A DNA stretch of 45,307 bases from the IMG/VR virus record IMGVR_UViG_3300023213_000009, positions 1 through 45,307 of that record, one strand, 5' to 3'. Shown one piece after another: positions 1 through 45,307 of the stretch. The position numbers and the translations under genes were made by a program. Within the stretch, counting starts at the first letter, position 1. The number at the start of each line of letters is the position of its first letter. This stretch comes from a virus. Its lineage: Duplodnaviria; Caudoviricetes. Below the pieces are notes generated by a model that worked only from the letters and a program-made list of their open reading frames with translations, made no database searches and was not told the origin of the DNA.

Positions 1-127
1 TATTATTTCAGTACCACATCATGTTGTGGCTATTGAAGTTAAAGATAAAAATATTTATTTTGTAGATAATCACACCAAAACTCCTATATCTGCTAGTTCA
101 TCCGCTAGATTGATGCAAAAAGTATTA
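1..127 (+). repeat. Terminal direct repeat, left copy (probably assembly overlap)
   Basis: Identical to 45181..45307 except G96 vs A45276. 127 is a common assembler k-mer length. Confidence 0.95.
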
Positions 128-340
128 GGAGTCTGGAGAATCACTAAGAAAGTCACACCTAAATTCGTTAAATCTGAAATAAAAGTTGTATGCAATTCGG
201 CTAGGCATGTGACTCTATTTAGGGATTCTATATTTGAGAATGCAGAGGACAACACCTCAACAAGACTTGGTTCATTTAGTTTCTTGGATTATGAAGAACT
301 TAAACAAATCATTCATGAAATGAAGAGGTTGATCAAATGA
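1..340 (+). CDS. C39-like peptidase, 3' part (ORF track 26..340 is a truncated call)
   Basis: In frame with the ORF starting at 44918 once the circle is closed. Confidence 0.75.
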   Translation, partial: IISVPHHVVAIEVKDKNIYFVDNHTKTPISASSSARLMQKVLGVWRITKKVTPKFVKSEIKVVCNSARHVTLFRDSIFENAEDNTSTRLGSFSFLDYEELKQIIHEMKRLIK

Positions 341-531
341 TTCCACAAGATAAAGAACAAAGAGTTAAAATAATTGCTTACATGATAGAAGGTATCAAAT
401 TACAACATGATGAATTAGGAGATTGGGAGAGAGAATTTACTTATTCTGTAGAAGAACAATTTGAAAGGAAAGGTGATTTGACAGTTAGACAGTGTGAGAA
501 GCTAGAACAAATTTACAATCGATATTGTTAG
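337..531 (+). CDS. Hypothetical phage protein
   Basis: ATGA-coupled to the previous gene; LGDWEREF...LTVRQCEKL pattern of small phage proteins. Confidence 0.75.
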   Translation: MIPQDKEQRVKIIAYMIEGIKLQHDELGDWEREFTYSVEEQFERKGDLTVRQCEKLEQIYNRYC

Positions 532-541
532 GAGATGACAA

Positions 542-736
542 ATGAAAGAAAATAGAGGCTTTGCGTCGATGGATAAAGAGAAACAAAGAAAAATTGCTAG
601 CATGGGAGGTATAGCCGCACACGAGAAAGGTACAGCACATGAATGGGATAGTGAAGAAGCAAAAGCAGCAGGAAAAAAAGGTGGAATGAAGTCAGCAACA
701 ATGCAATTTCGTAAAAAGATTGAAGAGAGTAAGTAG
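542..736 (+). CDS. KGG-repeat general stress protein (YciG/Con-10 type)
   Basis: RGFASMDKEKQRKIASMGG...HEWDSEEAKAAGKKGG; SD AGGAG upstream. Confidence 0.9.
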   Translation: MKENRGFASMDKEKQRKIASMGGIAAHEKGTAHEWDSEEAKAAGKKGGMKSATMQFRKKIEESK

Positions 737-771
737 AAAACCGAGCAACAACTTCCTTTAAAGAGGAAAAA

Positions 772-990
772 ATGCCAAAACATATCGCACCTAGACTAGC
801 AAGTGGAGACTCAAGAGTTGGATTTGGTCATGGTTTACCAGAAGCAATTAAGGAGGGATTAAGACGTATTGCTGAAAGAGAAAATAAGAGTATGTCTTGG
901 GTAATGGAAGAAGTTATTATTGACTATTTTAATTTGCGTAGACCAAGATATGCGTCGAATGGTAAGAAAGAAAAAGGAAGAGATGAATAA
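772..990 (+). CDS. Ribbon-helix-helix (CopG/Arc-like) DNA-binding protein
   Basis: LPEAIKEGLRRIAERENKSMSWVMEEVIIDYF matches the RHH pattern. Confidence 0.75.
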   Translation: MPKHIAPRLASGDSRVGFGHGLPEAIKEGLRRIAERENKSMSWVMEEVIIDYFNLRRPRYASNGKKEKGRDE

Positions 991-1283
991 TGACTGGCGA
1001 AATTCACGAAATCGAATTTGAAATAATAGAGCCGCCAGCCGTAGACCATTTAGGCCAAATTAAATGGAGAATGAAAGGCGGCGAATATATTCTTATTAAA
1101 GATATGGAAGATAAACATCTTAGAAATGCTGCATTATTCTTAATGAATATGGGATATACAAAGTGTCTTGCTCCTGAACAGATAAGAATAATGTGGCTTA
1201 GAATATTTGCTATGGAATGGGAACGTAGACTTCTACGAAAAAAAGTTAAAGAGTTAAGAGAATGGACGGTGAATGATGACTGA
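990..1283 (+). CDS. Hypothetical phage protein
   Basis: TAATG coupling; WRMKGGEYILIKDMEDKHLRNA motif. Confidence 0.75.
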   Translation: MTGEIHEIEFEIIEPPAVDHLGQIKWRMKGGEYILIKDMEDKHLRNAALFLMNMGYTKCLAPEQIRIMWLRIFAMEWERRLLRKKVKELREWTVNDD

Positions 1284-1425
1284 AGAAGAAAGAAATGAAG
1301 TGTTAAAAGCATTAGAATTAGTACAAAATAATCCATATATAGATAGAATAGATATGAAATATTGTTCTATTTATAAAGTTGGCCCAAAACTTGTAAGAAT
1401 TGATGTGAAAGTAAAACATGATTGA
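1276..1425 (+). CDS. Small hypothetical protein (49 aa, not in ORF track)
   Basis: MTEEERNEVLKALELVQNNPYIDRID...; fills the gap and overlaps both neighbours. Confidence 0.65.
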   Translation: MTEEERNEVLKALELVQNNPYIDRIDMKYCSIYKVGPKLVRIDVKVKHD

Positions 1426-2338
1426 GAAAGCAAACATAATTCTAGATGCGAGTAAAATAGATTTATTCGAAACTTGCCCTAGAAGATATTTCTATAGATA
1501 TGTAGCTAAGAGAGGTTTACCAGTAGGACAAAAAAATAAAAGTCTAGATTTAGGTGGCTTAGGCCATGAAGGATTAGCCGTTTACTATCGAATGCTAGCT
1601 AAAGGAGACCACTATAAAGAAAGAATCGAAGCCTGTACGACCAAGATTATGGAAACTGCAGCTAATCCAGAACTATCTAATTCTGACCCAGATGATGTGA
1701 TTCGTTTAGTAAGAGCAATAGAAGAGTCGCAAGACCATTGGCGTGCTGAAGACGAAAATGGATTAGAGGTATTAGCCGTCGAACAGCCGTTTGCATATAT
1801 ACTATATGAAGATGAATATGTGCGTATTATTATATCTGGCAAAATAGACCTACTTGGTAACTACAAACCAATAGGACAAAGAACGGAATACAAGAATCTT
1901 CCATTCGACCACAAGACATATTCAAAAGATTCACAATTTTCTGTCTTGCGGAAAAGCAATCAATTCACAAATTATGCTGATGCAGTCAAATCAAATTATC
2001 TTTGTGTCAACAGGATAGGTCTACAAGACCCAGATGCAAAGAAACCTATGACTGCGGATGAAAAGTTCAAACGCCCAATTCTTTCTTACGACCCAATCTA
2101 TTTTCAGGATTGGAAACATAACATAACTAAAATGATATTGAATGAATTTTTAACTTGTGTAAGCGACAATTACTGGCCTGAAAAATCTACTAGTTGTAAT
2201 AAATTCAATAGATTATGTGAATATTATGATGTCTGTGACTCTTCAGGAGAGAAAAGTAAGATTTGGAAATTAGAATGTAACTATGTAAACGTCGAAGATT
2301 GGGACGTAACCAAAACATTAGCGGAGGAGAAGAAATGA
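1418..2338 (+). CDS. PD-(D/E)xK Cas4/RecB-like exonuclease
   Basis: N-terminal CPRRY, AVEQPF, GKIDLL, DHKT catalytic motifs; C-terminal C-x6-C-x5-C suggests an Fe-S staple. Confidence 0.85.
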   Translation: MIEKANIILDASKIDLFETCPRRYFYRYVAKRGLPVGQKNKSLDLGGLGHEGLAVYYRMLAKGDHYKERIEACTTKIMETAANPELSNSDPDDVIRLVRAIEESQDHWRAEDENGLEVLAVEQPFAYILYEDEYVRIIISGKIDLLGNYKPIGQRTEYKNLPFDHKTYSKDSQFSVLRKSNQFTNYADAVKSNYLCVNRIGLQDPDAKKPMTADEKFKRPILSYDPIYFQDWKHNITKMILNEFLTCVSDNYWPEKSTSCNKFNRLCEYYDVCDSSGEKSKIWKLECNYVNVEDWDVTKTLAEEKK

Positions 2339-2636: not shown

Positions 2637-2667
2637 GTTCGTTCATTCGGAATAGATAGAAGAAATT

Positions 2668-2997: not shown

Positions 2998-3164
2998 TGG
3001 GTGGAACAATGCCAATATGTCCTTTCTGTAAAAAAGAATGTGCATATAGCGGAGTAAAAGACCATATTCGAGATAAACATCCTGATAAATATAAGGAATG
3101 GATTAATTTTGGCCAATTACCATATTGGAGATATGATGATGAAGGAAATCTTCGGAGAAATTAA
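2997..3164 (+). CDS. Small C2H2 zinc-finger protein (55 aa, not in ORF track)
   Basis: MGGTMPICPFCKKECAYSGVKDHIRDKHP...; stop/start coupled on both sides. Confidence 0.7.
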   Translation: MGGTMPICPFCKKECAYSGVKDHIRDKHPDKYKEWINFGQLPYWRYDDEGNLRRN

Positions 3165-4054
3165 TGGCGAAGATTTCAGATATAGACCTTAACGCAATTA
3201 GTTTCTTGTTTAAATCAAGTCCTGGATTTGGAAAAACTCTAGCTGCTGCCAGTTTTGCAGTAGCAGGTCCAGTTTATTTATCTTATTGGGATAAAAAATC
3301 TCCAGTGGAATTAAGTACATTTTTTACAGATAGAAGATTTGGGAGTAAAGCTAAGAAAATCAAAGATAACATTGAATATGATACTTACGGTAGTCAGTCG
3401 GCCCATCAATTCCTGAATAAGCTAATAAAAACATACAAAGAAGGTTGTCCATACTTTGCTATGATTAATGATTCTTTAACATGGATGACCGCATCAGCCG
3501 TCAATTGGTCACTTAATTTTGGTAAAGTCGATAAAACTAGAGCAGTTAAAAAAGATATTAAACCAGATTTTGATGAATATAAAGTAGAGACTAGCATAGT
3601 AAGTCAATGTATAGATATATGTAGAGAACTTCCCTGCCATGTAATTTGGACTGCCCACCCTCTATCTACAATAAGCCTTTCAGGAAGCGGTTCATCAATG
3701 AGAGTTGACAGAACTAATCCAATTGTTAGTTACGGTAGCAAAGTAGCTAGTATGATTCCGGGTTCCTTTAGTGAAATTTATCATTTTAGCCAAAAGAATG
3801 TTTGGGGTGAAAATAATAAAAAACAATATTTAGTAAATACTGAGGCAGTAGGAGATGAATTCGCTAAATCACCACTTTTAGGAGACTATATTAAGGAATT
3901 CGATATTACAGATAGGTTGTTTTATGAAGTATGGAAAGAATTATTAGATAAAAGTATGGGAATAGAACCGAAACCTCCTAGAGAACCTATCACCCTAGAA
4001 TCCTTCACATCCAAACAACCCACCGAAAAACAACCAACCGACTGGAAGGTGTAG
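3164..4054 (+). CDS. Sak4-like/AAA_24 ATPase (ssDNA-annealing recombinase)
   Basis: Walker A PGFGKT, Walker B INDSLT, HVIWTAH; lies between exonuclease and SSB. Confidence 0.75.
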   Translation: MAKISDIDLNAISFLFKSSPGFGKTLAAASFAVAGPVYLSYWDKKSPVELSTFFTDRRFGSKAKKIKDNIEYDTYGSQSAHQFLNKLIKTYKEGCPYFAMINDSLTWMTASAVNWSLNFGKVDKTRAVKKDIKPDFDEYKVETSIVSQCIDICRELPCHVIWTAHPLSTISLSGSGSSMRVDRTNPIVSYGSKVASMIPGSFSEIYHFSQKNVWGENNKKQYLVNTEAVGDEFAKSPLLGDYIKEFDITDRLFYEVWKELLDKSMGIEPKPPREPITLESFTSKQPTEKQPTDWKV

Positions 4055-4055
4055 A

Positions 4056-4460
4056 ATGGCAGAAAGAAGTTGGGTAGTAACACCAGAAGATCTCGCAAAA
4101 GGAGATTTGGTAAAACCAGGCTGGTACAATGCTGAAATCGTCAAATACGAGGACGGTGAAGCAGGAGAAGATGCCAAGAATCCAGGTAGTGCTACATCTA
4201 AATTTTATTTTAAAGCATTAAATCCTGAAACCGGTAAATACTTTGAGCCATATCGTTATTTCAGTGAAACTGCATGGGGATTTGCTAAGACATTCTTTGC
4301 TGCTATGAATTTTCCAAAAGATGGAGAAAACTACAAGGTTAGTTCTTCTTTGTTTAGACAGACTATCGGACATAAAGTTGATATCTACATCGTGCGTGGT
4401 AAGACGAATAAAGGTAACGAATTCAATGAAGTAAAGGATTTCAGACCATATAGCGGATAG
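4056..4460 (+). CDS. Single-stranded DNA-binding protein (DUF669-like)
   Basis: LVKPGWYNAEIV...FNEVKDF pattern; directly follows the Sak4-like gene. Confidence 0.7.
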   Translation: MAERSWVVTPEDLAKGDLVKPGWYNAEIVKYEDGEAGEDAKNPGSATSKFYFKALNPETGKYFEPYRYFSETAWGFAKTFFAAMNFPKDGENYKVSSSLFRQTIGHKVDIYIVRGKTNKGNEFNEVKDFRPYSG

Positions 4461-4468
4461 CCGTCAGC

Positions 4469-4570: not shown

Positions 4571-4837
4571 ATGCAGGACTTTCAGTGGATTGAGAGAGCA
4601 AAAACAACTTTTAATTTTCACAGAAGTAAATTAACATCGCATGACAAGTGGACACTGGCACATACGGCTAAAGCTTTAAGACGTTCTCAAGGTTCTATTT
4701 GTGAAGATTTATTATTAGCTCGTTGGTTAAGAACACACGAAAGACAACTAAAAGGATTTAGATATGCATATGAAGCATTAGAATATGTTAGAAAAGAACA
4801 AAGAAGACTAGAAACAGATAATGGATTTGATGACTGA
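4571..4837 (+). CDS. Putative HTH protein (ParB-HTH-like)
   Basis: WTLAHTAKALRRSQGSICEDLLLA resembles a helix-turn-helix; SD GGAG. Confidence 0.55.
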   Translation: MQDFQWIERAKTTFNFHRSKLTSHDKWTLAHTAKALRRSQGSICEDLLLARWLRTHERQLKGFRYAYEALEYVRKEQRRLETDNGFDD

Positions 4838-5036: not shown

Positions 5037-7514
5037 ATGCCTAATTTCGTAGGAGGTGTAGGTAGTATAAATCCAGATTTAATGGTAGTCGGAGAAGCTC
5101 CAGGTCCATTAGAAAATACTAGAGAGTTACCATTTCAAGGACCAACAGGTAAAATAGTTGATGATTGTCTAGAAAAAGCTGGCTTGATAAGAAACAACTG
5201 CTGGTTAACCAATGTTAGCAAATTCCAACCTCCATTCAATAACTTCGATAAACTACATTTAATCGGCATAGATATTGATAAACAAATTGAAGAGTTGTGG
5301 GATAAAGAAATTAACAAGCTAAAGCCGAAATGTATTTTAGCCGTCGGAGATAGAGCTTTACAAGCCGTCTGCGGTGTCTCCGGCATCCTCAATTACAGAG
5401 GATCAATATTAACCGCAAAAGATGGAGTAACTAAGGTTATTCCAACAATTCATCCTGCCGCATTATTCACTCATGGTGATGATGACGACAAACGGGGCGC
5501 ATTGCCCTGGGTATATTTAAAACTAATCGAAGCTGATTTTATTCGAGCGGCTGAAGAATGTCAAACTAGAGAGATAGTCCTTCCTGAAAGAACATTATCA
5601 ACTATTCACAATTCACTCGACCTTCACAGATTTTTCCGTGAATACGAAAAACTCGACAAAGCGGCTGTTGACATTGAGTCTATTAATTGTGTTCCTGTGT
5701 GTGTTGGATTTGCTTTTAATAGATACCACGCTATTTCTATTCCTTTGTATCATCACATTGGTCCTCACAAGCTCACTGATATGGGAGATAATGAGCTAGA
5801 TGAATGTTGGAGGATGATTGATAAACAACTCAGACGACTCAAAATTGTTGGACATAATTTCCTCTATGATGAGTACAAACTTGGACTTATCGGATATGAA
5901 ACTCCGAATGTCTATTCAGACACCCTCATTAAGACTAGAGTTATATGGCCAGAACTTCCAGACAAAAGATTGTGTGTTGTATCTTCATTGTGGACAAGAG
6001 AGCCATTCTATAAAGATGACGGAAAAGAGTTCAAACTTGGTAAAGTCAGTTTCGACAAGTTTCTTGTGTACAATGCTAGAGACTGCGCTGTCGAATTTGA
6101 AGTAGATGAAGAACAAGATAAAGATTTAAAAAACCTTTCTGAAACACATAACGTTCCATTATGGGATTACTATTACAATTATCAAATGAGAAAACATAAG
6201 TTTTATTTGAAATTGCAAACGACTGGTAAAAAAATAGATTATCCCATGAAAGCTGCACTAATGAAAAAATATACAGGATTACAAGCAATAGTACATGAAA
6301 GAATAACAGAAGCCGTCGGTGATGAAATAAACGTTAAATCATATCCACAAATATACAATCTTCTTTACAACATAATGAAATTCAAGAAAAGAATAAGAAA
6401 TCCTACTTCTGAGGAGAGCATTGTAGCATTACTAGGAAAATGCAAAGACAAAGTGAAATCAAAAATATTGGAGGATTTACTTGAAGAACGAAGAGTTAGA
6501 GACCAAAAATCAAGGCAAATCTCTTTTTGCCCTGATTATGATGGGAGATGTAAATCAGCTTACAATATCATTGCAACTGAAACCTGTCGAAGTTCTACAG
6601 GTATTCTTAAAAAACCTTTCAGACCTAGAAAAATTGGACTTGCTGACCATACCATCTCTGCGCATGGAAGATTAGCTAAAGACATTAAAACTATGTTTAT
6701 TGCGGACGAAGGGAAAGTCATTTTACAGGCTGACTCTAGTCAAGCAGAAGCTAGAATAGTAGCCGTTTTAAGTAAAGATTGGGAACTACTCAAAGCATTT
6801 GATGAGATAGATATACATAGGCGGACGGCTGGATTGATATTTGGATACGTAAATAAGCTAGAATTATCTAAAGATTTTAAACATCCAATAATTGATTTCT
6901 TACCTAAAGATGGTCCGGAAAGATTTACAGGCAAGAAAACTAGACATGCTGGCAATTATAATATGAAGAAACATACATTTATGATTGTGTTTAATACGGA
7001 TGCTCAAAAATACGATATTCCAATGTCAATTAGTGAATGGAAAGCCAATCAGATGTTGGAAATATTCCATGCAGCCAGTCCAAAACTTGAACAAGTCTTT
7101 TGGAAAGAAATTAAAGAAGCTCTTGACGCTACTAGAACTCTTATCGATCCTTTTGGTGGTGTTAGGCAATTTTATGGTCGTGCTGATGATTCTCTATATG
7201 GAGAAGGGTATGCTAATATTCCACAGAGGACTGTTGCACATTTGGTACAAGGTGCGGCATTAAAAATAGATGATGAATTAAATGGGGATACACAAGTTCT
7301 TTGGGCGGAGGAAAAACATGATGCATTGTACTTGCAAGCACCAGCAAACAATTGGGAACCATACGCTAAATTAATGAAAAAACATATGGAACGCTCAATT
7401 GATTTCAGAACATATTGCACGTTAAAAAGAGATATTGATTTAATAATTCCATGTGACATTGAGATTAGCCACACTAATTATGCAGCTTTTGAGAAAGTGA
7501 AGTTAGCTGCATGA
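5037..7514 (+). CDS. polA: Family A DNA polymerase with N-terminal uracil-DNA-glycosylase-like domain and 3'-5' exonuclease
   Basis: UDG family-4 motifs VVGEAPG, PFQGPTG, TIHPAA. Exonuclease motifs VDIES, GHNFLYD, YNARD. Polymerase motifs A (QADSSQAEARI), B (RFTGKKTRHAGNY) and C (KHDAL). Confidence 0.93.
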   Translation: MPNFVGGVGSINPDLMVVGEAPGPLENTRELPFQGPTGKIVDDCLEKAGLIRNNCWLTNVSKFQPPFNNFDKLHLIGIDIDKQIEELWDKEINKLKPKCILAVGDRALQAVCGVSGILNYRGSILTAKDGVTKVIPTIHPAALFTHGDDDDKRGALPWVYLKLIEADFIRAAEECQTREIVLPERTLSTIHNSLDLHRFFREYEKLDKAAVDIESINCVPVCVGFAFNRYHAISIPLYHHIGPHKLTDMGDNELDECWRMIDKQLRRLKIVGHNFLYDEYKLGLIGYETPNVYSDTLIKTRVIWPELPDKRLCVVSSLWTREPFYKDDGKEFKLGKVSFDKFLVYNARDCAVEFEVDEEQDKDLKNLSETHNVPLWDYYYNYQMRKHKFYLKLQTTGKKIDYPMKAALMKKYTGLQAIVHERITEAVGDEINVKSYPQIYNLLYNIMKFKKRIRNPTSEESIVALLGKCKDKVKSKILEDLLEERRVRDQKSRQISFCPDYDGRCKSAYNIIATETCRSSTGILKKPFRPRKIGLADHTISAHGRLAKDIKTMFIADEGKVILQADSSQAEARIVAVLSKDWELLKAFDEIDIHRRTAGLIFGYVNKLELSKDFKHPIIDFLPKDGPERFTGKKTRHAGNYNMKKHTFMIVFNTDAQKYDIPMSISEWKANQMLEIFHAASPKLEQVFWKEIKEALDATRTLIDPFGGVRQFYGRADDSLYGEGYANIPQRTVAHLVQGAALKIDDELNGDTQVLWAEEKHDALYLQAPANNWEPYAKLMKKHMERSIDFRTYCTLKRDIDLIIPCDIEISHTNYAAFEKVKLAA

Positions 7515-8141: not shown

Positions 8142-8304
8142 TCAGAAAATCGTACTTGAACTTACAGAAAATGAAACATTAGTCTTATGTAAAGCATTAC
8201 TCGAACATAATCCGATAAAAGAAGATGAATTAATATCTATTACGTTATATGCTAAATTAAAACGTAGATTAGGTGAAGTATTCGGTAATTATGAGACATC
8301 GTGA
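8134..8304 (+). CDS. Small hypothetical protein (56 aa, not in ORF track)
   Basis: MNDQKIVLELTENETLVLCKALLEHN...; fills the gap, GTGA overlap with the next gene. Confidence 0.65.
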   Translation: MNDQKIVLELTENETLVLCKALLEHNPIKEDELISITLYAKLKRRLGEVFGNYETS

Positions 8305-9551
8305 ACTCATCTTGGATCACAGATCTGATAAGTGAGCATCAAGATGTAGAAACCCCAGATTCGTGGATATTTTGGTCATTGGTTTCGGCTGTTAGCGCAG
8401 TAGCCGCAAATGCCTATACTCTCAGAACTCTCAAAGGTAATCTTCTTTATTATCCTAATCTCTATATTATATTAATGGGCGAATCAGGTTTAGGAAAAGG
8501 ATTTCCAATTAACTTATCTAAGAGATTAGTTCAAAAAGCCGAATGTACTAGAGTAATAGCCGGAAGGAGTAGTATTCAAGCGATTATACAGGAATTATCC
8601 AGTTTTCGACAAGTACAAGGTAAACCTATAATTGCTGATAGTAGAGGACATATTATAAATGGAGAATTATCTACAGCTCTTATTAAAGATCCTATGGCGT
8701 TGAATTGTTTGACCGACTTATTTGATAGAAACTTTAACCCGGAGTGGGTAAATCTCCTGAAAGGTGACGGTGCGGAAAAACTCAAAGAGCCGTACGTTAC
8801 GTGTTTATTTGGTACTTCCCCTGCCCATTTCTATGATTCAGTTCCTCAAGCTAATATCGAAGGAGGGTATATTGGACGTAATTTGGTTATCTACGAGGAA
8901 AAAAGAAGTAAGGATCTCGATTTACTCGACTCAGAGGAAGAAAGCATTGACGATGATAAATTTAACAACTATATAATTCCTAAATATATTCCACATTTAC
9001 AAAGAATATCTAAAAATAAAGCTAGAATGGTTCCGGATACTAATGCAAGAATACATTATAATACATGGAGAAGAGAATGGAGAGCAACTCAAGCTAAATA
9101 TAATGATAGAACAGGATTTGTTAATCGAGTCCCAGACCACACACTGAAATTGGCTATGTGTCTTGCGCTTGCTAGATATGAAAATAACACCATAATAAAT
9201 GAAGCAGACGTGACGGAAGCTATAGAGAAAGTCACAGGTCTAATTTATGCTTCTAATAAAGCATCAGAAGGAGGCGGATTAGACCCACAAGCCGCACAGA
9301 CCAAAAAAGTTGTAGATTTTCTCATTAATGCTCCAGAAAATCAACTTACTAGAACTGAATTATTAGTAAGAGGATACGGCAATTATGATTCATTAACTCT
9401 TGATAAAATACTTGATACTTTGATGGATATGAAATGGATAATAAGACAGAAAGTTGGAGTTGGTAAAAATATGGATTGGAATATAATGTTGTCAGGTCAA
9501 CCAAAAGAAAATCTTGATGAATTTAGAAGAAAGGCCAAAAAAAGTGAGTGA
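8301..9551 (+). CDS. DUF3987/YfjI-like P-loop protein (putative replicative helicase)
   Basis: YPNLYIILMGESGLGKG Walker A region, LTDLFD, GYIGRNL, C-terminal winged-helix-like segment; position after polA. Confidence 0.7.
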   Translation: MNSSWITDLISEHQDVETPDSWIFWSLVSAVSAVAANAYTLRTLKGNLLYYPNLYIILMGESGLGKGFPINLSKRLVQKAECTRVIAGRSSIQAIIQELSSFRQVQGKPIIADSRGHIINGELSTALIKDPMALNCLTDLFDRNFNPEWVNLLKGDGAEKLKEPYVTCLFGTSPAHFYDSVPQANIEGGYIGRNLVIYEEKRSKDLDLLDSEEESIDDDKFNNYIIPKYIPHLQRISKNKARMVPDTNARIHYNTWRREWRATQAKYNDRTGFVNRVPDHTLKLAMCLALARYENNTIINEADVTEAIEKVTGLIYASNKASEGGGLDPQAAQTKKVVDFLINAPENQLTRTELLVRGYGNYDSLTLDKILDTLMDMKWIIRQKVGVGKNMDWNIMLSGQPKENLDEFRRKAKKSE

Positions 9552-11005: not shown

Positions 11006-11275
11006 GTGATGGACAAGGAACTACCAGATTCACAGCAAGACCAAGGAGAAAGAGGCTACATAGATAAGCCATTTGCATATCATAAACCTAGTTCTAACGG
11101 ATTAAAGAGAATTACTAATCTTAGAATGATATTTAGTCAAGTTAAGGCAGCTATTGATTTTAATTGCCCAATGTCAAGAGAACGTTCTATTGCTACTACT
11201 GAATTGGAAACTGCCGCTATGTGGGCTATTAAAGCTGTAGTATTTAATGACAAAGATAGTGAAGTTGAGAAATAA
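11006..11275 (+). CDS. Acb2/Tad1-like hairpin protein (candidate anti-defence nucleotide sponge)
   Basis: FAYHKP...CPMSRERSIATTELETAAMWAIKAV matches the SRE-x-(S/A)-x-A-x-T-x-(L/V)E-x-A-x-MW helix of Tad1/Acb2-type proteins. Confidence 0.7.
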   Translation: MMDKELPDSQQDQGERGYIDKPFAYHKPSSNGLKRITNLRMIFSQVKAAIDFNCPMSRERSIATTELETAAMWAIKAVVFNDKDSEVEK

Positions 11276-15676: not shown

Positions 15677-16669
15677 TTATTGCCCCAAAACTTGAGCGAA
15701 AATTAATGGAGCAACAATAGAAGCATCTGATTTGATATTGAAAGATGGAGTATTCGGACCTATTTTACCCCAAGTTATTTTCTCATTACATTCAGCACCA
15801 GAATAGCCACCGTAAGACACCTCTGCATCAGTAATTTGACAGAAATATGACCACAATTTAGTGTCTTTTTTCTTCAAATCTTGTTGTAATAAAGGTACAA
15901 CACAAATTGAAAAATCACCAGCAATACCACCACCGATTTGAAAGAAACCCATCTCATGTCTTTTTGATTCCTCATCATACCACATAGCTAAATCCATCAT
16001 ATATTCAATTCCAGACTTCATACAATGACAATCTAATTTTTCATCAAGACACATAGCCGCAAAGACATTACCCAATGTAGAATCTTCCCAACCTGGAACA
16101 ACTATTTCTATATCCATCTCAGCAGCGGCTAGTAACCAAGAATTTTCTTTAGGAATTTGATAATATTTCTCTAAAACACCATCTTTTAGAATTTCAGTAA
16201 GAAATTCGTGTGGAAATTTACGTTCACTGGCATTACAAGCATTCTTCCATCTAGCAATAATTACATCTTCTACTACTCTCATAGAACTAGCAGGAATAGC
16301 CGTATCTGTAACACGATTCATTTCTTTATCAAATAAGGCTTTTTCATCTTTAGGAGTTAAATCTTTATACTTAGGCAAAGAAACATAAGAATCATGAGCA
16401 ACAAGATTAAAAACGTCTTCTTCAAGATTGGCACCAGTACATGAAATACCATGAACTTTCTTTTCTCTAATCATCTGAGCGAGTGTAATACCAAGTTCAC
16501 CAGTAGACATGGCACCGGCTAGTGAAAGAAACATATATCCACCTTTACTAATAAGAGCTATATATGCATCAGTAGCATCTCTCAACGTTCTAGCGTTGAA
16601 ATGATGATAATTTTTACGTACGAATTCGGCTATTGGTCCCTTAGCTAAATCTTTCTGTTTAACCTTCAT
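15677..16669 (-). CDS. Deoxyhypusine-synthase-like protein (bacterial homospermidine-synthase type)
   Basis: LAGAMSTGELG, ISCTGANLEED, QIGGGIAGDF, SYGGYSGA, EKITWGKI (catalytic Lys motif). Likely start ATG at 16669, overlapping the upstream gene end (330 aa). Confidence 0.92.
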   Translation of the reverse strand: MKVKQKDLAKGPIAEFVRKNYHHFNARTLRDATDAYIALISKGGYMFLSLAGAMSTGELGITLAQMIREKKVHGISCTGANLEEDVFNLVAHDSYVSLPKYKDLTPKDEKALFDKEMNRVTDTAIPASSMRVVEDVIIARWKNACNASERKFPHEFLTEILKDGVLEKYYQIPKENSWLLAAAEMDIEIVVPGWEDSTLGNVFAAMCLDEKLDCHCMKSGIEYMMDLAMWYDEESKRHEMGFFQIGGGIAGDFSICVVPLLQQDLKKKDTKLWSYFCQITDAEVSYGGYSGAECNEKITWGKIGPNTPSFNIKSDASIVAPLIFAQVLGQ

Positions 16670-29721: not shown

Positions 29722-32098
29722 TCATGGCTCCATTTGGTTTTTTAGGTGGTGCTCCTGCTCTTTTAGGAGCTTTAGCCTCACCTAAAGGTGATTTTCTGAC
29801 ATCCTTAGAGGTTGCCAGAGTTAATTGATCATCATGCATTCTTTGTGCAGCAATACCTTTCTGTAATTCAGCTAGGTGAGCTTTCATATGCAATAATACA
29901 TTTTTATATCCTTGTGGATTTTCTCTCTTAGCCATTCTACCAGCAAGACTAATTAACCAAGATTTACAAATAGCAGCTTCTACAGAATGATTATCTACGT
30001 CAACATCAATCTCCACAGAAGAATTCTCTTGTGGAGGTGGAACTTGTTGGCCGCTTTGTGCTGCTGCCTTAAATGCTGCAACGGCATTAGGATCAGGAGG
30101 AGTTGGTTGAGAATTAATAAGTTCAGTGATTTCTTCATATTGTTTCTCTCTATCATCCTGTCCAGGTAACTTGAATTGTGGAATCTTAGTAATCTTACTA
30201 ATATATGGTAAATTATCTGGATCAAGTAGAGCTTGTGTAATTTCTTGTTGATTCAAATTAAATAATTGCATAATCATATCTGCCTGTTGTTCATCCGTAA
30301 CAGGCATTCTGTCATCAGGTTCTAATTCAATATCTCCAATCTTTCCACCCATTTCAGCTTTCCTAATAAACACATTAATGAAATTACCTTGATCGTCTTT
30401 TTTAACAACTCGTTCATCTTCAACCATACATTTCATATACATTGGAATAGCTTTTGCAAAAATCTTTTTCCACCATACAGTCATCATTCTCCAAGGAGTT
30501 TGTAATCTCTGTAAAGCCATACCTTTAGAAGTTGTATATTCAGCAGCCGTTCGACTACTACCAGCAGGTAATTGACCACCAAATATCGAAGGCAAAGCAC
30601 CTGATACGAATTGACCTAATTCTTGTAAAATCTTATAAAATTGTATTACTTCTGGAGCTAATCTTGCTAATTGAATACTATAGAACGAATCGGCTAGACC
30701 TCTTGAACCAGGAACAGGTTTAGTTGGAGTTAAAGTTCCTGGTGTAGCCTCAATTTGTTTTTGTGCAGCAAAATTAACAACTTGAGGATCGGCAAATGTC
30801 TGAGCAATTCCATGCTCAATTGTTTGAACTGTCAAAGAAACAAGATCATTTGTTAAATCTTGAATATTAGTTAGTAATTCTCCAAGAGGGTCACTGGTAG
30901 TAAAATCTGACATTGGATTACAAGTTAATGTCCAATGATCATCTAAAGCTTCATTACAATACTCAGCACAAATAGTATTTGCAAGAACTACCTTAGCTCC
31001 ATCTGGAAATCTCTTTTTTAGTTTTTTACAGTCTTCATCAGGTAATACGTTGAATGCGGCTGGACGTAACCAGTAATTATTAACTGTTACTTGTTCATCA
31101 GGAAATTCTCCACGATATTGAGTATTTAATCTTCCATACTGTTCATATGGATCATTGACACCAATATTAGCCCATCCACCCTGAGGTAATGTTTCTCGTA
31201 GTTTTTTATACATTTCAAGTATGTTAGAATAATGAGTTTCATAGCCGTATCGTAGATAAGGAGTATCACTCTGTTTCTTAGCATAGTTAGCAATTTTAAT
31301 ATATAATCCGCCGTAGACTTCTAGACAAATTCTAGATTTTGGTTTCTTCGTTGTTCCAACAAAACGAGGAATGATGAGTTTAGTTTTTTGGAGTTCAGGA
31401 TCGAGTTGTATCCCGCACTCCAAACAAATTGGGCCTTTCTCTTTTATTTCATTATGAATATCAACATCATCTTCACCTGGATCATATTCATCCATTTCAT
31501 CTGCGCTAAATTCTTCATCAGGAACTCTAGCACCGCAATGAGGACAGGCATATCCTTGTATTTCTTCATCTTGAAATTTAGGTTCTTCATAAGTTCCATA
31601 TTCTTCATTTTCATGTTTATATGTATAACAAGCAATTGGACTTTCTGTACAATAGATATAAAGAGCATGTAACCACAAAAGTATTACATCATTATGTTTA
31701 TAGATTAAATCGGCTATTTCATCACCGGCTGCGGCTGTTTGTTGGTCTAATGGATTATCAGCATCATCAGGAACGCAATCAATAGCTGGAATTTGTATTG
31801 ATAAAGCAGCAATAATAGTTTCAAGAAAAGCTCTAAATACGTTTACTGGCTTATCATAATAATCTTGATCTTGGTCGGTTACGTTAATATCTCTATTCCA
31901 AATTTTATAGTCATGAGCCGATTCTGACCAATAAATTTGTGAGAAATTATTCCAGTAAAGTTTTAGTCTTCTAAAATGTCTAATTTGTCTCTCACGAGTC
32001 ATTCTATCTTCTAGCTCAAAATGGTCAGCTACAGTTTTAAGTAAAATAGCATACTCATCATCTGCGTCAGGATAAACTACTTTATTTTTGTCGTGCAA
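29705..32098 (-). CDS. Portal protein (P22-like) with Zn-ribbon insertion
   Basis: 797 aa between terminase and scaffold; VNVF, QFVSGALPSIFGG, DVDNHSVE patterns; CPHCG...CLECG insertion. Confidence 0.8.
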   Translation of the reverse strand: MHDKNKVVYPDADDEYAILLKTVADHFELEDRMTRERQIRHFRRLKLYWNNFSQIYWSESAHDYKIWNRDINVTDQDQDYYDKPVNVFRAFLETIIAALSIQIPAIDCVPDDADNPLDQQTAAAGDEIADLIYKHNDVILLWLHALYIYCTESPIACYTYKHENEEYGTYEEPKFQDEEIQGYACPHCGARVPDEEFSADEMDEYDPGEDDVDIHNEIKEKGPICLECGIQLDPELQKTKLIIPRFVGTTKKPKSRICLEVYGGLYIKIANYAKKQSDTPYLRYGYETHYSNILEMYKKLRETLPQGGWANIGVNDPYEQYGRLNTQYRGEFPDEQVTVNNYWLRPAAFNVLPDEDCKKLKKRFPDGAKVVLANTICAEYCNEALDDHWTLTCNPMSDFTTSDPLGELLTNIQDLTNDLVSLTVQTIEHGIAQTFADPQVVNFAAQKQIEATPGTLTPTKPVPGSRGLADSFYSIQLARLAPEVIQFYKILQELGQFVSGALPSIFGGQLPAGSSRTAAEYTTSKGMALQRLQTPWRMMTVWWKKIFAKAIPMYMKCMVEDERVVKKDDQGNFINVFIRKAEMGGKIGDIELEPDDRMPVTDEQQADMIMQLFNLNQQEITQALLDPDNLPYISKITKIPQFKLPGQDDREKQYEEITELINSQPTPPDPNAVAAFKAAAQSGQQVPPPQENSSVEIDVDVDNHSVEAAICKSWLISLAGRMAKRENPQGYKNVLLHMKAHLAELQKGIAAQRMHDDQLTLATSKDVRKSPLGEAKAPKRAGAPPKKPNGAMNAPNA

Positions 32099-37093: not shown

Positions 37094-37122
37094 AGCTTAC
37101 CACGGTCGCTGCCGGCTGTCAA
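37094..37122 (-). promoter_or_regulatory. Sigma70-type promoter of the morphogenesis operon
   Basis: TTGACA-17 nt-TAAGCT on the - strand, TG extended -10, A-rich upstream. Confidence 0.8.
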
Positions 37123-37700: not shown

Positions 37701-37785
37701 TACCTGGAAAAAATTCGTGCCAAACAAAAAAATACAGCCGTCTGAGATATACTCTCACGACGGCTGTATTCTTTACCGCGACGAA

Positions 37786-38316
37786 CTACGCCGACGGCTC
37801 AGCAGGAACAGCAGCAGGAACAGCAGCAGGAACAGCAGCTTTCGCAGCTTCCTGCGCTGCAACAATGCCGGGTCGAATGAGATTGACCGCCATCTCAATC
37901 GACACGTTTCCGAATGTGCTGTAATTTCTAACAGCCAAACGGAACCCTTTCTGAACCTCTTCAGGCCACGATGCATCGACGTATTCAGAAACCGGGTCAG
38001 ATGCAGCTTTGTAAGCTTGCTCATTAAATCCGGTAATGAGCAACGAAACGACTTGCGCTTCATCTTTCAGCGTCAATGCTGTCAGATTCATAAATTCGTC
38101 AATCGTTTCCGGCAGTGTCTCCTTTTTGCTTTCGTCGAATGCCTCGTATTTGATTTCCAATGGATTGCGACCGCGCGTCAGACCAAGAAACCAACGAACG
38201 CCCTTTCCCGTTCTCTTCTCGTTCAGCTTTGCCTCTTTCTTCTCCATTTCCTTCGCCCGCGCTTCGAGCGCCGCCTTGTTCTGTTCCTTCTCCGTCTGTT
38301 CGACTACTTGTGTCAT
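37786..38316 (-). CDS. Hypothetical protein with C-terminal AAVP repeats
   Basis: Own promoter; typical protein composition; ends AAKAAVPAAVPAAVPAEPSA. Confidence 0.8.
   Translation of the reverse strand: MTQVVEQTEKEQNKAALEARAKEMEKKEAKLNEKRTGKGVRWFLGLTRGRNPLEIKYEAFDESKKETLPETIDEFMNLTALTLKDEAQVVSLLITGFNEQAYKAASDPVSEYVDASWPEEVQKGFRLAVRNYSTFGNVSIEMAVNLIRPGIVAAQEAAKAAVPAAVPAAVPAEPSA
37801..37839 (+). repeat. 12-nt tandem repeat x3 (AGCAGGAACAGC)
   Basis: Direct reading; encodes AAVP on the - strand. Confidence 0.9.
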
Positions 38317-40597: not shown

Positions 40598-40769
40598 AGT
40601 TTTTTATTCGTCGCATCGAATTTGTCCTAATTGTGCTCTCTACACTTACAGAAGGAAAAAGAGAACACAAAAGGGATGGTTTCGGTGCGACGAATGTTTT
40701 AGATTGTGGAGATACAATGATAAAGAAAGGAAAGGCAACAGTTCAATACACAAATCATGCAATGAATAA
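40569..40769 (+). CDS. Possible Zn-ribbon protein
   Basis: CPNC...GWFRCDEC; start uncertain, overlaps both neighbours. Confidence 0.45.
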   Translation: MSQNPVQVSKVFYSSHRICPNCALYTYRRKKRTQKGWFRCDECFRLWRYNDKERKGNSSIHKSCNE

Positions 40770-40896
40770 GAATGAACGTTGTGAATTGTGTAGGTATTTT
40801 TTACCTGCATTTGAAGATGATTTTAGTAAATGTATGAAGGTACTAGGTTCAATAGCCGCTAACGGCTGGTGCAAGTTGTTTAAAAGGAGTAAGTAA
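40717..40896 (+). CDS. High-potential iron-sulfur protein (HiPIP)-like, no signal peptide
   Basis: KATVQY...RCELCRYF...KCMKVLGSIAANGWCKLF gives Y, CxxC, C and GWC, the HiPIP signature; SD GGAG. Confidence 0.8.
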   Translation: MIKKGKATVQYTNHAMNKNERCELCRYFLPAFEDDFSKCMKVLGSIAANGWCKLFKRSK

Positions 40897-40897
40897 G

Positions 40898-41802: not shown

Positions 41803-41978
41803 TTACTAATAAATGGTATGTTGATGAAAATAATTTAAATGAAGTAGTAATTAGGAGATTAGAAGATGATATTTCAATATTGCAGATGTCAAGTGAAAAG
41901 CTAAATCGAGAAGAGATGATAGACGTAGCAAAGCAGATAGTTGATGACTGGAATTTTGATTGTGAGGAGTTAGAATAA
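41799..41978 (+). CDS. Small acidic protein (59 aa, not in ORF track)
   Basis: MITNKWYVDENNLNEVVIRR...; coupled at both ends. Confidence 0.65.
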   Translation: MITNKWYVDENNLNEVVIRRLEDDISILQMSSEKLNREEMIDVAKQIVDDWNFDCEELE

Positions 41979-43579
41979 TGGCGCTAACACAGATAATTAG
42001 GCAGCAATGTCCAGTCTGTAAGAAAATAGCTATTGAAGAGAGTAGACTACGTGTAGGTAAAACTATTCTTATTCAATTAGCTTGTGGTCATATGATGCGT
42101 CAGGAATCTCTAGCATCATCTGACACTGAATATGCTTCAATAGTCTTTACTGATGGTTGTAAGCCTAGACCATATCAGATTGATGCAATGAAATTCGCTG
42201 AAGAATCAAATATTCGTTGCATTATTGCTGATGAAGCTGGATTAGGAAAAACAATTGAATCAGCAAGTCTTTTACGTTTGCATCCAGACAAGCTTCTACC
42301 TGCAATAATCGTCTGCCCGTCTACCGTCAAATTACAGTGGATGTATGAAATCCACAGAATTTGCTCTGATGGTTCTGGAGCAAAAGACCCAAGATTCCTT
42401 ACACAAGTCATTTCTTCCGGTAAAGAGAAAGCTTTACCCGGATTCCAAATCTACGTTGTTACCTACGATATGCTTAAGAAGGAAGAAATATTTAAATTAC
42501 TTCCAGAAAACTACGTAAAAACAATAATTATTGATGAATGCCAGAAGATTAAGAATCATCTATCAGACCGCGCTAAGGCAGTTCAGAGAATTGGAAAGAG
42601 CACACCACATATCATTGCCATGTCAGGTACTCCGATTAAGAACAATGCAGGAGAGTATTTCACTGTTCTTAATCTAGTCAAGCCGATGATGTTTCCACAT
42701 TATCAGCGTTACATCGACACATATTGTGACGCATACCATAACGGATGGGCATTGAAAGTAGGTGGATTAAAAGACGCTGAAAGATTCCATGAAGACACTA
42801 AAGACATCATTATTCGCCGTACCAAGTCCGAGGTTTTAAAGGACTTGCCTTCTCTCGATAGGAAATTTCATCATGTTGAGTTAGATAGAAAACTCAACAA
42901 GGTATATGATGAAGCAATGAAAGAACTAGATGACATAATGTATGGTGATGACAATGAATTTCAGAAAATGGGGAGTATCATTGCCATATATTCTAGGTTA
43001 AGACATATTACAGGTATCAGCAAAGTAACAGATTGTGTTGATTTCGTTACTACACATCTATTGAGTACTGGTAGAAAGATTGTAGTCTTTGTGCATCATC
43101 AGGATGTAGCCGGAATGCTCGAAGCACAACTTAATGCTGTGATGGGTGCAGAAGAAATAGGCGGTAGATGTCTAACTCTATCAGCCGCATTAGACGGACT
43201 AGGTAGAGCAAACGTAGTTGCTAAGTTTAAAGAAGATGAATCTAGCAGGGTTTTAATTGCTAGTACGTTGGCAGCAGGGGAAGGATTGAATTTACAGTTC
43301 TGTTCTGATGCAGTGATTCTAGAACGTCAGTGGAATCCGGCTAATGAAGAACAAGCTGAAGGAAGATTTCATAGATTCGGCCAGCAAAACAACGTAACTA
43401 TCACATACATGTTAGCTAGTGAAACTATAGATGAATACTTTACTGAATTAGTTGAATCTAAGAGAGCTATTGTTGCTGCGACATTAGACAATAAACAAAT
43501 TCAGTGGGACCAACAATCACTCATGAAAGAACTAGCAGAAATTCTTCTTCAGAAAGGAAAGAAGCCATGGAGATTATAA
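41978..43579 (+). CDS. SNF2-family (SF2) helicase/translocase
   Basis: RPYQ, ADEAGLGKT, IIDECQKIKN, SGTP, GEGLNLQ, WNPANEEQAEGRFHRFGQ. Confidence 0.93.
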   Translation: MALTQIIRQQCPVCKKIAIEESRLRVGKTILIQLACGHMMRQESLASSDTEYASIVFTDGCKPRPYQIDAMKFAEESNIRCIIADEAGLGKTIESASLLRLHPDKLLPAIIVCPSTVKLQWMYEIHRICSDGSGAKDPRFLTQVISSGKEKALPGFQIYVVTYDMLKKEEIFKLLPENYVKTIIIDECQKIKNHLSDRAKAVQRIGKSTPHIIAMSGTPIKNNAGEYFTVLNLVKPMMFPHYQRYIDTYCDAYHNGWALKVGGLKDAERFHEDTKDIIIRRTKSEVLKDLPSLDRKFHHVELDRKLNKVYDEAMKELDDIMYGDDNEFQKMGSIIAIYSRLRHITGISKVTDCVDFVTTHLLSTGRKIVVFVHHQDVAGMLEAQLNAVMGAEEIGGRCLTLSAALDGLGRANVVAKFKEDESSRVLIASTLAAGEGLNLQFCSDAVILERQWNPANEEQAEGRFHRFGQQNNVTITYMLASETIDEYFTELVESKRAIVAATLDNKQIQWDQQSLMKELAEILLQKGKKPWRL

Positions 43580-43791
43580 AAGATGAGTCTTTTGAGAGAG
43601 ATATGGTATTACTAGATGCTTTGAGAAAGATTAGTGATAGTCTTGTAGATTCACTAAAAGATATAAGTGAAATTAACAAAAAGAAAGATGAGAGTATTTT
43701 GATGATGCTAACTATGATAACAGAATCTATTACAGACCTTCGCTCTCGAATAGAATCGATAGAAAACAAATTTAAGATAGATATACATTGA
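43567..43791 (+). CDS. Small coiled-coil protein
   Basis: Likely ATG at 43567. Confidence 0.65.
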   Translation: MEIIKDESFERDMVLLDALRKISDSLVDSLKDISEINKKKDESILMMLTMITESITDLRSRIESIENKFKIDIH

Positions 43792-44003
43792 TGACAGATA
43801 AGAACGATAGTTTAGACAATGTATACCTTATGCCAGAATATATTAAATGTCCTACTTGTGGATTCAAATATACTCTTTACGACGTGTTGACTGGCCTACT
43901 CTTTGATGATAAAATAATATGTGTTAATTGTTCAGGCACAATAACCAAGAATTACGTTGGCAAATTTTTAGGAGTCATCAAAGATGTCAGACCAGAAAGA
44001 TAA
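43788..44003 (+). CDS. Small Zn-ribbon protein
   Basis: KCPTCG...ICVNC. Confidence 0.65.
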   Translation: MMTDKNDSLDNVYLMPEYIKCPTCGFKYTLYDVLTGLLFDDKIICVNCSGTITKNYVGKFLGVIKDVRPER

Positions 44004-44283
44004 AATAGCATACACATACGCACCGAATTTCGATGCTCCATTCCTAGAAGCAAAAGAAGGAGTAGAGCTGGTACAAAAAATTTTGATTTTACTAGAACCA
44101 TATAATCCTAATTCTGCTAGAAATGCACTATGTTTAGCATTATCAGCCGTTCATCATATACTTCGTGGAGATAAAGCATTTGGATATAGTTTAACTCAAT
44201 TAATTGAGATGCATCAGACGTACAAAGAAGGTGTAGACTACGATATTATTCAATTTCCAAAGTTGGGAAGTGAGAATCACTGA
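43984..44283 (+). CDS. Hypothetical protein
   Basis: SD AGGAG; in operon. Confidence 0.7.
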   Translation: MSDQKDKIAYTYAPNFDAPFLEAKEGVELVQKILILLEPYNPNSARNALCLALSAVHHILRGDKAFGYSLTQLIEMHQTYKEGVDYDIIQFPKLGSENH

Positions 44284-44531
44284 TGGATTCAATCAACGTC
44301 CCAGACTTAGAAGGACCAATGTCTCTATTATGTTGGGTCCAAAGTAAAACGATGGTCCGATGTGATAGAGTCGCTGGGCATGTAGGTCTACATTCATGGG
44401 AACATCTTAATTTAGATAAAATTAAAAGAAAATCTGAATGGGCTATTTCTATGGAATGGCAAGTAAATAAAACTGTACCAGGACATAAAACTCAGTATTA
44501 CATCAACATTAGAGATTTGGGGATAGAATGA
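44283..44531 (+). CDS. Small Cys/His protein
   Basis: C...RCDRVAGHVGLH. Confidence 0.65.
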   Translation: MDSINVPDLEGPMSLLCWVQSKTMVRCDRVAGHVGLHSWEHLNLDKIKRKSEWAISMEWQVNKTVPGHKTQYYINIRDLGIE

Positions 44532-44713
44532 GAATTTGTGAAGATTGTCTCGAAGAACTAGATGAATCTGAGTTTGATGAAAATGATACTATTTGTACTT
44601 TTTGTAAAGAATGTATCAAAGAAGAATATTATGAATATGACATACTTGAAGAAGAATATTATGAATCTAAAAAAGTAGAAGATGAAGATGAGGACGATAA
44701 TGGCGACGATTGA
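44528..44713 (+). CDS. Highly acidic small Zn-binding protein
   Basis: ICEDC...ICTFC; Asp/Glu-rich with EEYYE x2. Confidence 0.65.
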   Translation: MRICEDCLEELDESEFDENDTICTFCKECIKEEYYEYDILEEEYYESKKVEDEDEDDNGDD

Positions 44714-44921
44714 TAATAAAAAAATAATTGACAATATTATTAAAAATGATGGATATTATGAAGATGACCCTCGCGTCGCAATGATAGTAGAATATGAAAA
44801 TGTATATGGTAGTATTACATGGGGTGTTACTTGGTCTAATGAACCAAAGCAATATCAGAGAAGATATTTGATTGAAAGCACTTACATTAATAATCCAAAA
44901 ATTATTTGGGAGGCCAAATGA
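44700..44921 (+). CDS. Hypothetical phage protein
   Basis: MATIDNKKIIDNIIKNDGYYEDDP; SD GAGG. Confidence 0.75.
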   Translation: MATIDNKKIIDNIIKNDGYYEDDPRVAMIVEYENVYGSITWGVTWSNEPKQYQRRYLIESTYINNPKIIWEAK

Positions 44922-45307
44922 CTGAACTTAAAGAAATTAACTTTGGATTCAACAAGTACTGTGGTCCAGCCGTCCTGAGTGCATTAACAGGAGAGTCAAC
45001 AGATAGATGTGCAGCCGTCATTAGTGCTATCACAGGACAAAAAGAAATTAAAGCTGTTGATATTCTTTACATAATGAGTGCATTTGGAAAATTAGGATTT
45101 CAATACGAAGCTCTTTCACTATTTAGTGGTGGAACACTATATAAAACATTAACTAACTTAGTAAACATAGATGGTTTCTATATTATTTCAGTACCACATC
45201 ATGTTGTGGCTATTGAAGTTAAAGATAAAAATATTTATTTTGTAGATAATCACACCAAAACTCCTATATCTGCTAATTCATCCGCTAGATTGATGCAAAA
45301 AGTATTA
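44918..45307 (+). CDS. C39-like (papain-fold) cysteine peptidase, 5' part; continues across the junction to 340 (200 aa total)
   Basis: Hand translation gives MTELKEINFGFNKYCGPAVLSALTG...FYIISVPHHVVAIEVKDKNIYFVDNH. This has Cys in CGPA, His in HHVVAI and Asp in YFVD, in C39-like order and spacing. The ATG overlaps the upstream stop (ATGA). Confidence 0.7.
   Translation, partial: MTELKEINFGFNKYCGPAVLSALTGESTDRCAAVISAITGQKEIKAVDILYIMSAFGKLGFQYEALSLFSGGTLYKTLTNLVNIDGFYIISVPHHVVAIEVKDKNIYFVDNHTKTPISANSSARLMQKVL
45181..45307 (+). repeat. Terminal direct repeat, right copy
   Basis: Repeats 1..127 with one mismatch. Confidence 0.95.

Follow-up and report, generated by a model that had tools for sequence, protein, structure and literature searches.

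Very frequent short words imposed on coding DNA are known from HIP1 and from DNA uptake sequences, and the pentamer AGCCG/CGGCT is such a word in the phage genome analyzed here (IMG/VR record IMGVR_UViG_3300023213_000009, Caudoviricetes; the whole 45,307-nucleotide stretch is referred to as the window). AGCCG, however, is nonpalindromic, is carried by a phage rather than a chromosome, and is accompanied by no DNA methylase gene found in the window. In the accessible text of PMC12315714, the Chi sites of lambdoid phages and P1 are also short asymmetric words that have accumulated beyond codon usage, can be strand-biased, and are tied to the recombination module, but they are read by the host RecBCD and are abundant in phages without a Rec module, whereas the AGCCG phage has such a module, its word changes with the replication module, and most genomes use both strands. 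The recognition sites of primases (GTC plus flanks for T7 gp4, CTG or CTA for DnaG, and those of CCPol-MP) have a similar trinucleotide-plus-flank size, per-strand use, and near-Okazaki spacing, and SCCmec shares the PolA-helicase operon arrangement. However, no primase gene was found in the AGCCG phage, and a genome-wide selected enrichment of primase sites was not found in the literature searched.

RK2 KorB-OB and Pseudomonas aeruginosa ParB share their fold, at modest Z scores, with an 88-amino-acid (88-aa) protein of the phage. AGCCG occurs in the core of the RK2 KorB operator, ATTTTAGCGGCTAAAAG, which contains TAGCCGCT (PMC11790492, accessible part), and P. aeruginosa ParB binds hundreds of dispersed heptamer half-sites (PMC5961200, accessible part). 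Unlike ParB/KorB-parS systems, the phage protein has no CTPase domain, no ParA was found, there is no palindromic operator, and the sites are coding and oriented. The window also departs from the pattern of a few palindromic centromeres, having 127 dispersed asymmetric sites, only two copies of TAGCCGCTA, and no inverted doublets within 3 bp. In addition, the 88-aa protein corresponds to the middle domain of a recorded family of phage fusions of ParB_N to an N6/N4 methylase (PMC12704722, accessible part) and occupies the same gene slot, whereas the CTPase and the methylase are both gone in the AGCCG phages.

The window consists of a circular 45,180-bp phage genome, whose plus strand encodes the early genes and whose minus strand encodes the virion genes, followed by an assembly overlap (positions 45181 to 45307; 127 bases) that repeats the start with one mismatch and contains none of the sites. 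AGCCG/CGGCT occurs 127 times in positions 1 to 45180 (69 AGCCG and 58 CGGCT), or once per 356 bp, at a GC content of 36.2%, in close agreement with the ~125 copies, one per ~360 bp, counted in the first-pass annotation. Where that annotation expected ~25 copies, 31.0 are expected from base composition and 25.6 and 28.8 under order-1 and order-2 Markov models; the maximal-order model expects 72.5 (z of 10.2), and the word ranks first of 512 pentamers under every Markov model. As had also been claimed, the sibling TGCCG/CGGCA is far rarer (26 copies on both strands; GGCCG, 12; CGCCG, 11), and both arms are enriched (early sense, 4.7-fold; early antisense, 3.9-fold; late sense, 3.4-fold; late antisense, 3.0-fold). 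The copies said to sit in the late promoter spacer came down to one (position 37113), which overlaps a minus-strand TTGACA recognized by eye; this putative promoter was absent from the output of the promoter scan. Among the 127 sites, a pyrimidine stands at −1 in 98 and at +1 in 89, and A or T stands at +2 in 102, giving the extended consensus (Y)AGCCG(Y/G)W, and 16 of the sites are AGCSGCT near-palindromes. Several true palindromes are avoided in the window (CAGCTG, GGATCC, and GAGCTC, 0 copies each; GATC, 0.45 of the expected number). GATC or GTAC is missing altogether from many of the distant relatives.

The enrichment is real and is written through synonymous codons. Three protein-preserving shuffles (across the genome, inside each gene, and with the first base of the following codon fixed; 150 each) were applied to open reading frames (ORFs) covering 41,920 bases; a full dicodon-preserving null would retain many sites by construction. 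The ORFs hold 116 copies, compared with expectations of 33.1, 35.0, and 43.1, respectively (z of 15.3, 16.7, and 15.0), and the shuffle maxima were 47, 49, and 60; under the codon shuffles, too, the word is first of 512. With protein sequence and codon usage controlled for, the word thus remains an outlier. The excess is found in four frames, in both orientations (observed/expected: xAG CCG, 18/2.3; xxA GCC G, 56/15.9; xCG GCT, 34/11.7; xxC GGC T, 6/1.7), and 56 of the 112 GCC codons and 23 of the 63 CCG codons lie inside sites. The effect at the amino acid level is small (1.08 to 1.10 versus 1.00 to 1.02 in two contexts and none in the third). The two examples given in the first-pass annotation, three sites clustered in the portal gene (31711 to 31736, minus strand) and a run in the exonuclease gene (1772 to 1789), are as it described them.

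The sites look like selected, oriented marks. Searches of IMG/VR with terminase, capsid, and PolA supplied the relatives, which were analyzed as whole records or arms. When the same number of sites was placed by codon opportunity and 13 genomes were pooled, the gaps between sites on one strand (~700 nt) were more even than expected (Stouffer Z of −3.06), the lowest value of 315 pentamers (314 controls: mean, +1.86; lowest, −1.83). Coverage of each strand at the Okazaki scale is seen in the 13 pooled genomes and is weak in the window alone. With both strands taken together, the effect is weak (Z of −0.9), and in the window the combined spacing is Poisson. In a pair test of 31 sequences, some of which are two arms of one genome and three pairs of which overlap by 0.3 to 2.8 kb, pairs 30 to 400 bp apart favored the order AGCCG..CGGCT (1.23 of expectation) over CGGCT..AGCCG and same-orientation pairs (0.85 each). 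This asymmetry (z of 6.6) has the same direction in 27 of the 31 sequences; for control words (253 of 306 run) the mean |z| was 0.9, and the two largest values came from words overlapping the motif. The effect persists inside genes (432:287). Gene position has no effect and was rejected as its cause, as was an RNA hairpin, whose stem is possible in either order. One such pair lies in a noncoding inverted repeat with 12-bp arms between the two genome arms (37731 to 37770), and similar hairpins occur in G009 and G027. Two relatives are polar: in G016, counted across both arms, one strand carries 90 sites where 28.5 are expected and the opposite strand 29 where 25.9 are expected, and G336 has ratios of 27:10 and 35:15. 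The core genes of G016, the most polar genome, contain many frameshifts, probably assembly errors. Conservation of site positions (correlation of 0.157) is uninformative, since it exceeds that of GC-rich controls (0.05 to 0.12) but lies below that of AGCCA (0.26) and AGCTG (0.19). Together, survival of the codon nulls, even per-strand spacing, and pair polarity support the idea of the first-pass annotation that the phage is selected to carry a short DNA signal.

The word follows the replication module and not the capsid. Of 80 PolA loci found, 68 of at least 9 kb were analyzed, including a few near-duplicates, and 12 were dropped. AGCCG reaches a z of at least 3 in 29 of the 37 loci whose PolA is at least 57% identical to that of the window and in 1 of the 31 others, and the close-PolA group forms a single clade with the window (Shimodaira-Hasegawa-like approximate likelihood ratio test support of 100). 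Under the same null, other lineages carry other words: CGGCCG(Y)W, WGCCGCT, AGCCGG, CGCGCCG, ACCCGG, RCGCGC, and CCTCGCG. No CCG- or GCG-containing word reaches a z of at least 6 in 20 of the 31 distant loci, many of which have a GC content of 46 to 54%, and the link between word and GC among distant loci is a trend (rho of −0.34, P of 0.06). GACCC in distant relatives was dropped as a further word, being clumped and probably protein driven. GTTCCA and AGTTCC are present at 1.6 to 1.8 times the codon null in the close and distant groups alike and may reflect codon-pair bias or a second shared signal. The capsid proteins of nine complete or near-complete close-PolA genomes are as distant (65 to 69%) as those of the CGCG phages, and the two kinds of phage are interleaved in the capsid and terminase trees. 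A single clade of 13 AGCCG versus 9 other capsid proteins was rejected by the approximately unbiased test (P of 2.5e-6), for which 22 of 43 capsid proteins were picked after viewing the tree and grouped by PolA clade. Capsid arms carry the word as well (observed versus expected: G342, 88 versus 21; G337, 43 versus 8; G343, 56 versus 12), with only 1 to 4 copies of CGCGC, and G016, whose PolA, helicase, and capsid are 62%, 70%, and 42% identical, respectively, has 2.6 AGCCG per kb. No cultured relative matched among 50,697 phage records, either by megablast (bases 1 to 25000) or by tblastn (capsid protein).

The best candidate for the reader is a stand-alone DNA-binding domain of the ParB/KorB helix-turn-helix (HTH) type, encoded by the 88-aa ORF at positions 4571 to 4837 (plus strand) and missed in the list of readers offered by the first-pass annotation. 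The ORF is conserved directly before the PolA gene and in relatives often overlaps its start. It has no family match, and sequence searches against PDB and Pfam gave nothing significant; the assignment comes from predicted structure, profile alignment, and covariation. The model (pLDDT of 92.9) was compared with 48,161 chains, of which the KorB DNA-binding domain was the best (Z of 6.4; root mean square deviation of 3.6; 75 residues aligned), tied with SopB, VirB, and ParB. It matches the middle domain of the ParB_N-methylase fusions (TM of 0.86 to 0.88), and hhalign gives 94% with the fusion of L273 (7990 to 9294), which occupies the same gene slot. Three GC-rich relatives (L273, L285, and L306) have the full ParB_N-HTH-N6/N4 methylase fusion where AT-rich relatives keep the HTH only, and these three have no enriched word. 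The window ORF is HTH domain throughout, without an N-terminal CTPase clamp; ParB_N was found only in L273 and L306, and no longer forms of the HTH protein were found, which is weak evidence. None of the 79 window ORFs matched ParA in Pfam or PHROGs, where a divergent ParA could escape. Most GCCG phages have GS[VI][SC][EQ]D as the recognition helix, whereas CGCGA phages have GLVSEN and AGCCGG phages have KSW[VI]G or KTWVG; in L262, which belongs to the close clade and lacks AGCCG, the helix is GPVSEE.

Among 28 close phages, HTH distance tracks the distance between motif profiles best of six genes (rho of 0.40, P of 0.002; partial, 0.35, P of 0.006). The second best is the PD-(D/E)XK exonuclease (1418 to 2338, plus strand; three sites, two of them at 1774 and 1785; rho of 0.31, P of 0.004; partial, 0.22, P of 0.07), followed by PolA (rho of 0.25; partial, 0.12). 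No covariation was seen for the helicase (rho of 0.13), the Sak4-like annealing protein (3164 to 4054, plus strand; PHROG 124), or the probable single-strand binding protein (4056 to 4460, plus strand), whose role is suggested by its position and a weak DUF669 match (E of 3.9e-4). The PolA gene (5037 to 7514, plus strand) encodes a family A DNA polymerase fused to uracil-DNA glycosylase (UDG), as judged from Pfam DNA_pol_A and UDG matches and alignment; its tree defines the AGCCG clade, and it is an alternative reader. The replicative helicase (8301 to 9551, plus strand) belongs by family match to DUF3987 (SF6, MCM-like), is 342 to 427 aa long in 20 records, and has no attached primase domain; its single-sequence model was unusable (pLDDT of 34). 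Such helicases are usually accompanied by a primase (PMC4889955 and PMC11724360, accessible parts). Neither a primase nor a DNA methylase was found among the 79 window ORFs or in 150 of the 187 representative accessory proteins of relatives. A PAP2 gene common to the GGCCG phages was rejected as a reader.

We favor, at a probability of roughly 0.4, the reading that AGCCG is a selected, oriented mark through which the HTH protein directs replisome loading or priming. The 88-aa domain would bind (Y)AGCCG(Y)W and would load or license PolA, the DUF3987 helicase, and a priming activity, which would have to come from PolA or host DnaG because no primase gene was found. With CGGCT(R) as the template, new strands would start with 5'-AGCCG, and the favored pair order would let two primers converge and cross. 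Read as a template, YAGCCG is CGG-CTR and thus holds CTG and CTA, the DnaG trinucleotides. In the accessible parts of the sources, Escherichia coli primers start with pppAG (PMC2978363), T7 primase needs flanks beyond its trinucleotide (PMC8599759), and a PolA that has a small partner is able to prime (PMC7581432). The HTH domain may be the remnant of a ParB-CTPase/methylase fusion; lacking the sliding clamp, it would depend on many sites, more than chance supplies in an AT-rich genome. Of the functions offered by the first-pass annotation, loading of a phage protein or priming factor is the best fit, given that the word goes with the replication module of the phage, and the mechanism set out here is our proposal.

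Several observations weigh against this reading. HTH domains bind duplex DNA, and a link to priming is only proposed. The structural scores are modest (Z of 6.4, tied), and Foldseek gave no match under an E value of 0.001. The correlation of the HTH with the motif is moderate, concerns a short protein, and is one of six tests among early-module genes that share a history; moreover, the GGCCG and WGCCGCT variants have the same common recognition helix. Eight CGCGC-type genomes lack the HTH (the positive controls G343 and G351 were recovered), and since some of them are strongly enriched (L269, z of 22), the CGCGC word needs another reader. In most of the HTH-less CGCGC genomes inspected, a cold-shock-domain gene stands before PolA instead. 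Such a gene, a possible second reader, was noted in L269, L283, L287, L294, L271, L303, L304, G022, and G023. In the window alone, spacing is weak (plus strand, z of −1.8; minus strand, z of +0.2), and the pair counts are weak though of the same sign (38/35 and 27/35, observed/expected). The pooled genomes are related and hence not independent, though synonymous sites are near saturation, and site positions turn over (the probability of a site given a site is 0.25). Finally, the abundance of Chi, a word read by the host, likewise varies with the recombination module in lambdoid phages (PMC12315714, accessible part), so that module tracking alone is no proof of a phage reader; here, the word itself changes.

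A somewhat unlikely alternative is that AGCCG serves as a priming site and is recognized directly by PolA, by the helicase, or by host DnaG steered by the phage helicase, with primers of 5'-AGCCG laid on the template 5'-CGG-CTR-3' and the HTH merely riding along. PolA and the helicase are present in every lineage, including the HTH-less CGCGC phages, no primase gene was found, and the CTG/CTA trinucleotides, pppAG starts, and PolA priming cited above also speak for it. So do the even per-strand spacing and the pair test with CGCGC, whose sites repel in all orientations, as expected of a palindromic core serving both strands. A helicase can shift the specificity of a primase (PMC5204125, accessible part). 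Against this alternative, the specificity of DnaG is described as conserved by host class (PMC2978363, accessible part), while here the word follows the phage module. The pyrimidine preference at −1 is pronounced in the window (4.7- and 5.1-fold enrichment over the codon null, compared with 2.0- and 1.6-fold for the other bases) but relatives show it only weakly (3.4 for C, 3.2 for G, 2.3 for T, and 2.1 for A), and the HTH follows the motif more closely than either PolA (partial, 0.12) or the helicase (rho of 0.13). A CCG specificity of the Aquifex primase was rejected, as that enzyme uses CCC, GCC, and CGC.

We consider a phage-encoded Chi unlikely. In such a system, the PD-(D/E)XK exonuclease and a SNF2-type helicase/translocase of the early module (41978 to 43579, plus strand; family match) would resect ends and halt at oriented AGCCG, and Sak4 would load for recombination-dependent replication. 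The exonuclease is the second-best correlate of the motif, the order AGCCG..CGGCT would place a stop facing inward on each side of a break, and G016 shows strand polarity. However, by simple reasoning, costs would have to be strongly convex for break-flanking stops to produce a preferred order, and Sak4 does not covary with the motif.

That the HTH forms a nucleoid-like or shielding coat at the sites, acting in compaction, nuclease blocking, or transcription control with no direct role in replication, is improbable. ParB coats half-sites (PMC5961200) and KorB is a repressor (PMC11790492), according to the accessible parts of both sources, and 16 sites are AGCSGCT near-palindromes, but a coat by itself leaves the per-strand spacing, the pair order, and the one-strand polarity unexplained.

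That the word mimics a Chi or self mark of the host, as raised in the first-pass annotation, is improbable to a similar degree. Many phages are under selection for Chi, which shows strand bias (PMC12315714, accessible part), some of the AGCCG genomes are polar, and the phage density of 2.8 sites per kb equals the chance density in the sampled GC-rich soil genomes (2.7 to 6.2 per kb). The idea nevertheless fits poorly because the phage itself encodes an exonuclease and Sak4, a kind of module that is mostly missing from Chi-rich lambdoid phages in the accessible text of PMC12315714; because AGCGG, the Bacillus subtilis Chi, is barely above the codon null (34 versus 29); and because AGCCG is not overrepresented in three sampled Acidobacteriota genomes, where it ranks 350 to 471 of 512 (80 to 160 kb each; this may not be the host phylum). 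Different words also accompany different replication modules within one capsid gene pool, and the swaps of modules that this suggests would need shared host cells, which argues against a host-set word. An attempt to assign the host from capsid matches failed: those in metagenome-assembled genomes (MAGs) labeled Bacteroidetes, Nitrosotalea, Pacearchaeota, and Alphaproteobacteria probably stem from phage contigs that were binned wrongly, and a 40% match in an Acidobacteriota MAG (unpublished G031) carries no conclusion and served only as the basis for the Acidobacteriota host lead and for the choice of the sampled phylum.

Least probable is a mutational sink, in which methylation or patch repair would protect or restore the word without selection: the HTH descends from a methylase fusion and pooled four-fold sites at first appeared transition-specific (log-likelihood differences of +51 and +34), but this signal vanished once the contexts of the avoided palindrome CAGCTG (CAGCNG) were excluded (−5.5 and +1.5), so that the transition-only gain was rejected as proof of a sink, being a CAGCTG artifact, no methylase was found in the AGCCG phages, and a sink gives neither even spacing, pair order, nor one-strand polarity. 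The protective modification suggested in the first-pass annotation is, for want of a methylase in the proteins searched, not supported, and like host Chi mimicry it is a less likely explanation. Loading through the HTH, direct priming, a phage Chi, and an HTH coat have in common a reader encoded by the phage module, which we regard as highly likely overall, an estimate that is perhaps generous because lambdoid Chi also tracks the recombination module.

Other genes of the window include unusual cargo. A gene resembling deoxyhypusine synthase of the homospermidine synthesis type (15677 to 16690, minus strand) lies among the virion genes and is 55 to 62% identical to proteins of several phyla; it occurs in 6 of 23 records compared and is thus not linked to the word. 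An Acb2/Tad1-type signal-sponge domain (11006 to 11275, plus strand) is a likely antidefense gene, and a HiPIP-like iron-sulfur domain (40633 to 40896, plus strand) and a KGG stress repeat protein (542 to 736, plus strand) are unusual in phages. A conserved 176-aa gene (37786 to 38316, minus strand) has a far higher GC content than the rest and stands alone between the arms with its own sigma-70-like promoter. Across the circular join, an ORF (44918 to 45180 into 1 to 340, plus strand) shows a Cys..His..Asp pattern that by eye resembles papain-like peptidases; its pieces have no family match.

The word most likely serves the phage replication module as a private, oriented signal. It would be a variant of the short oriented signals already known, and the chance that it represents a new kind of system is fair. 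Phages rich in Chi, the specificity of primases, and fusions of ParB are known, and in the literature covered, from which most subscription papers and supplements were missing so that an earlier mention is possible, neither the AGCCG word nor a module-switched genome-wide word was reported. Tentatively, it may be one instance of a private, swappable address code, in which a stand-alone ParB/KorB-derived domain or, in other lineages, another small module protein, for instance the cold-shock domain encoded ahead of PolA, would read a lineage-specific oriented word, the genome would be rewritten synonymously after module swaps, and replication would be loaded or primed without a primase gene. The lineages of the replication module and the variants of the recognition helix are matched by at least six classes of word, which would make the specificity predictable and swappable. 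Per-strand spacing, pair order, and module tracking can be used to screen other phages for hidden signals. If the reading is true, the replication genes of a phage impose a further layer of information on its genome, the exchange of modules would carry a hidden genome-wide cost, and an abundant family of uncultured phages would replicate without a recognizable primase.

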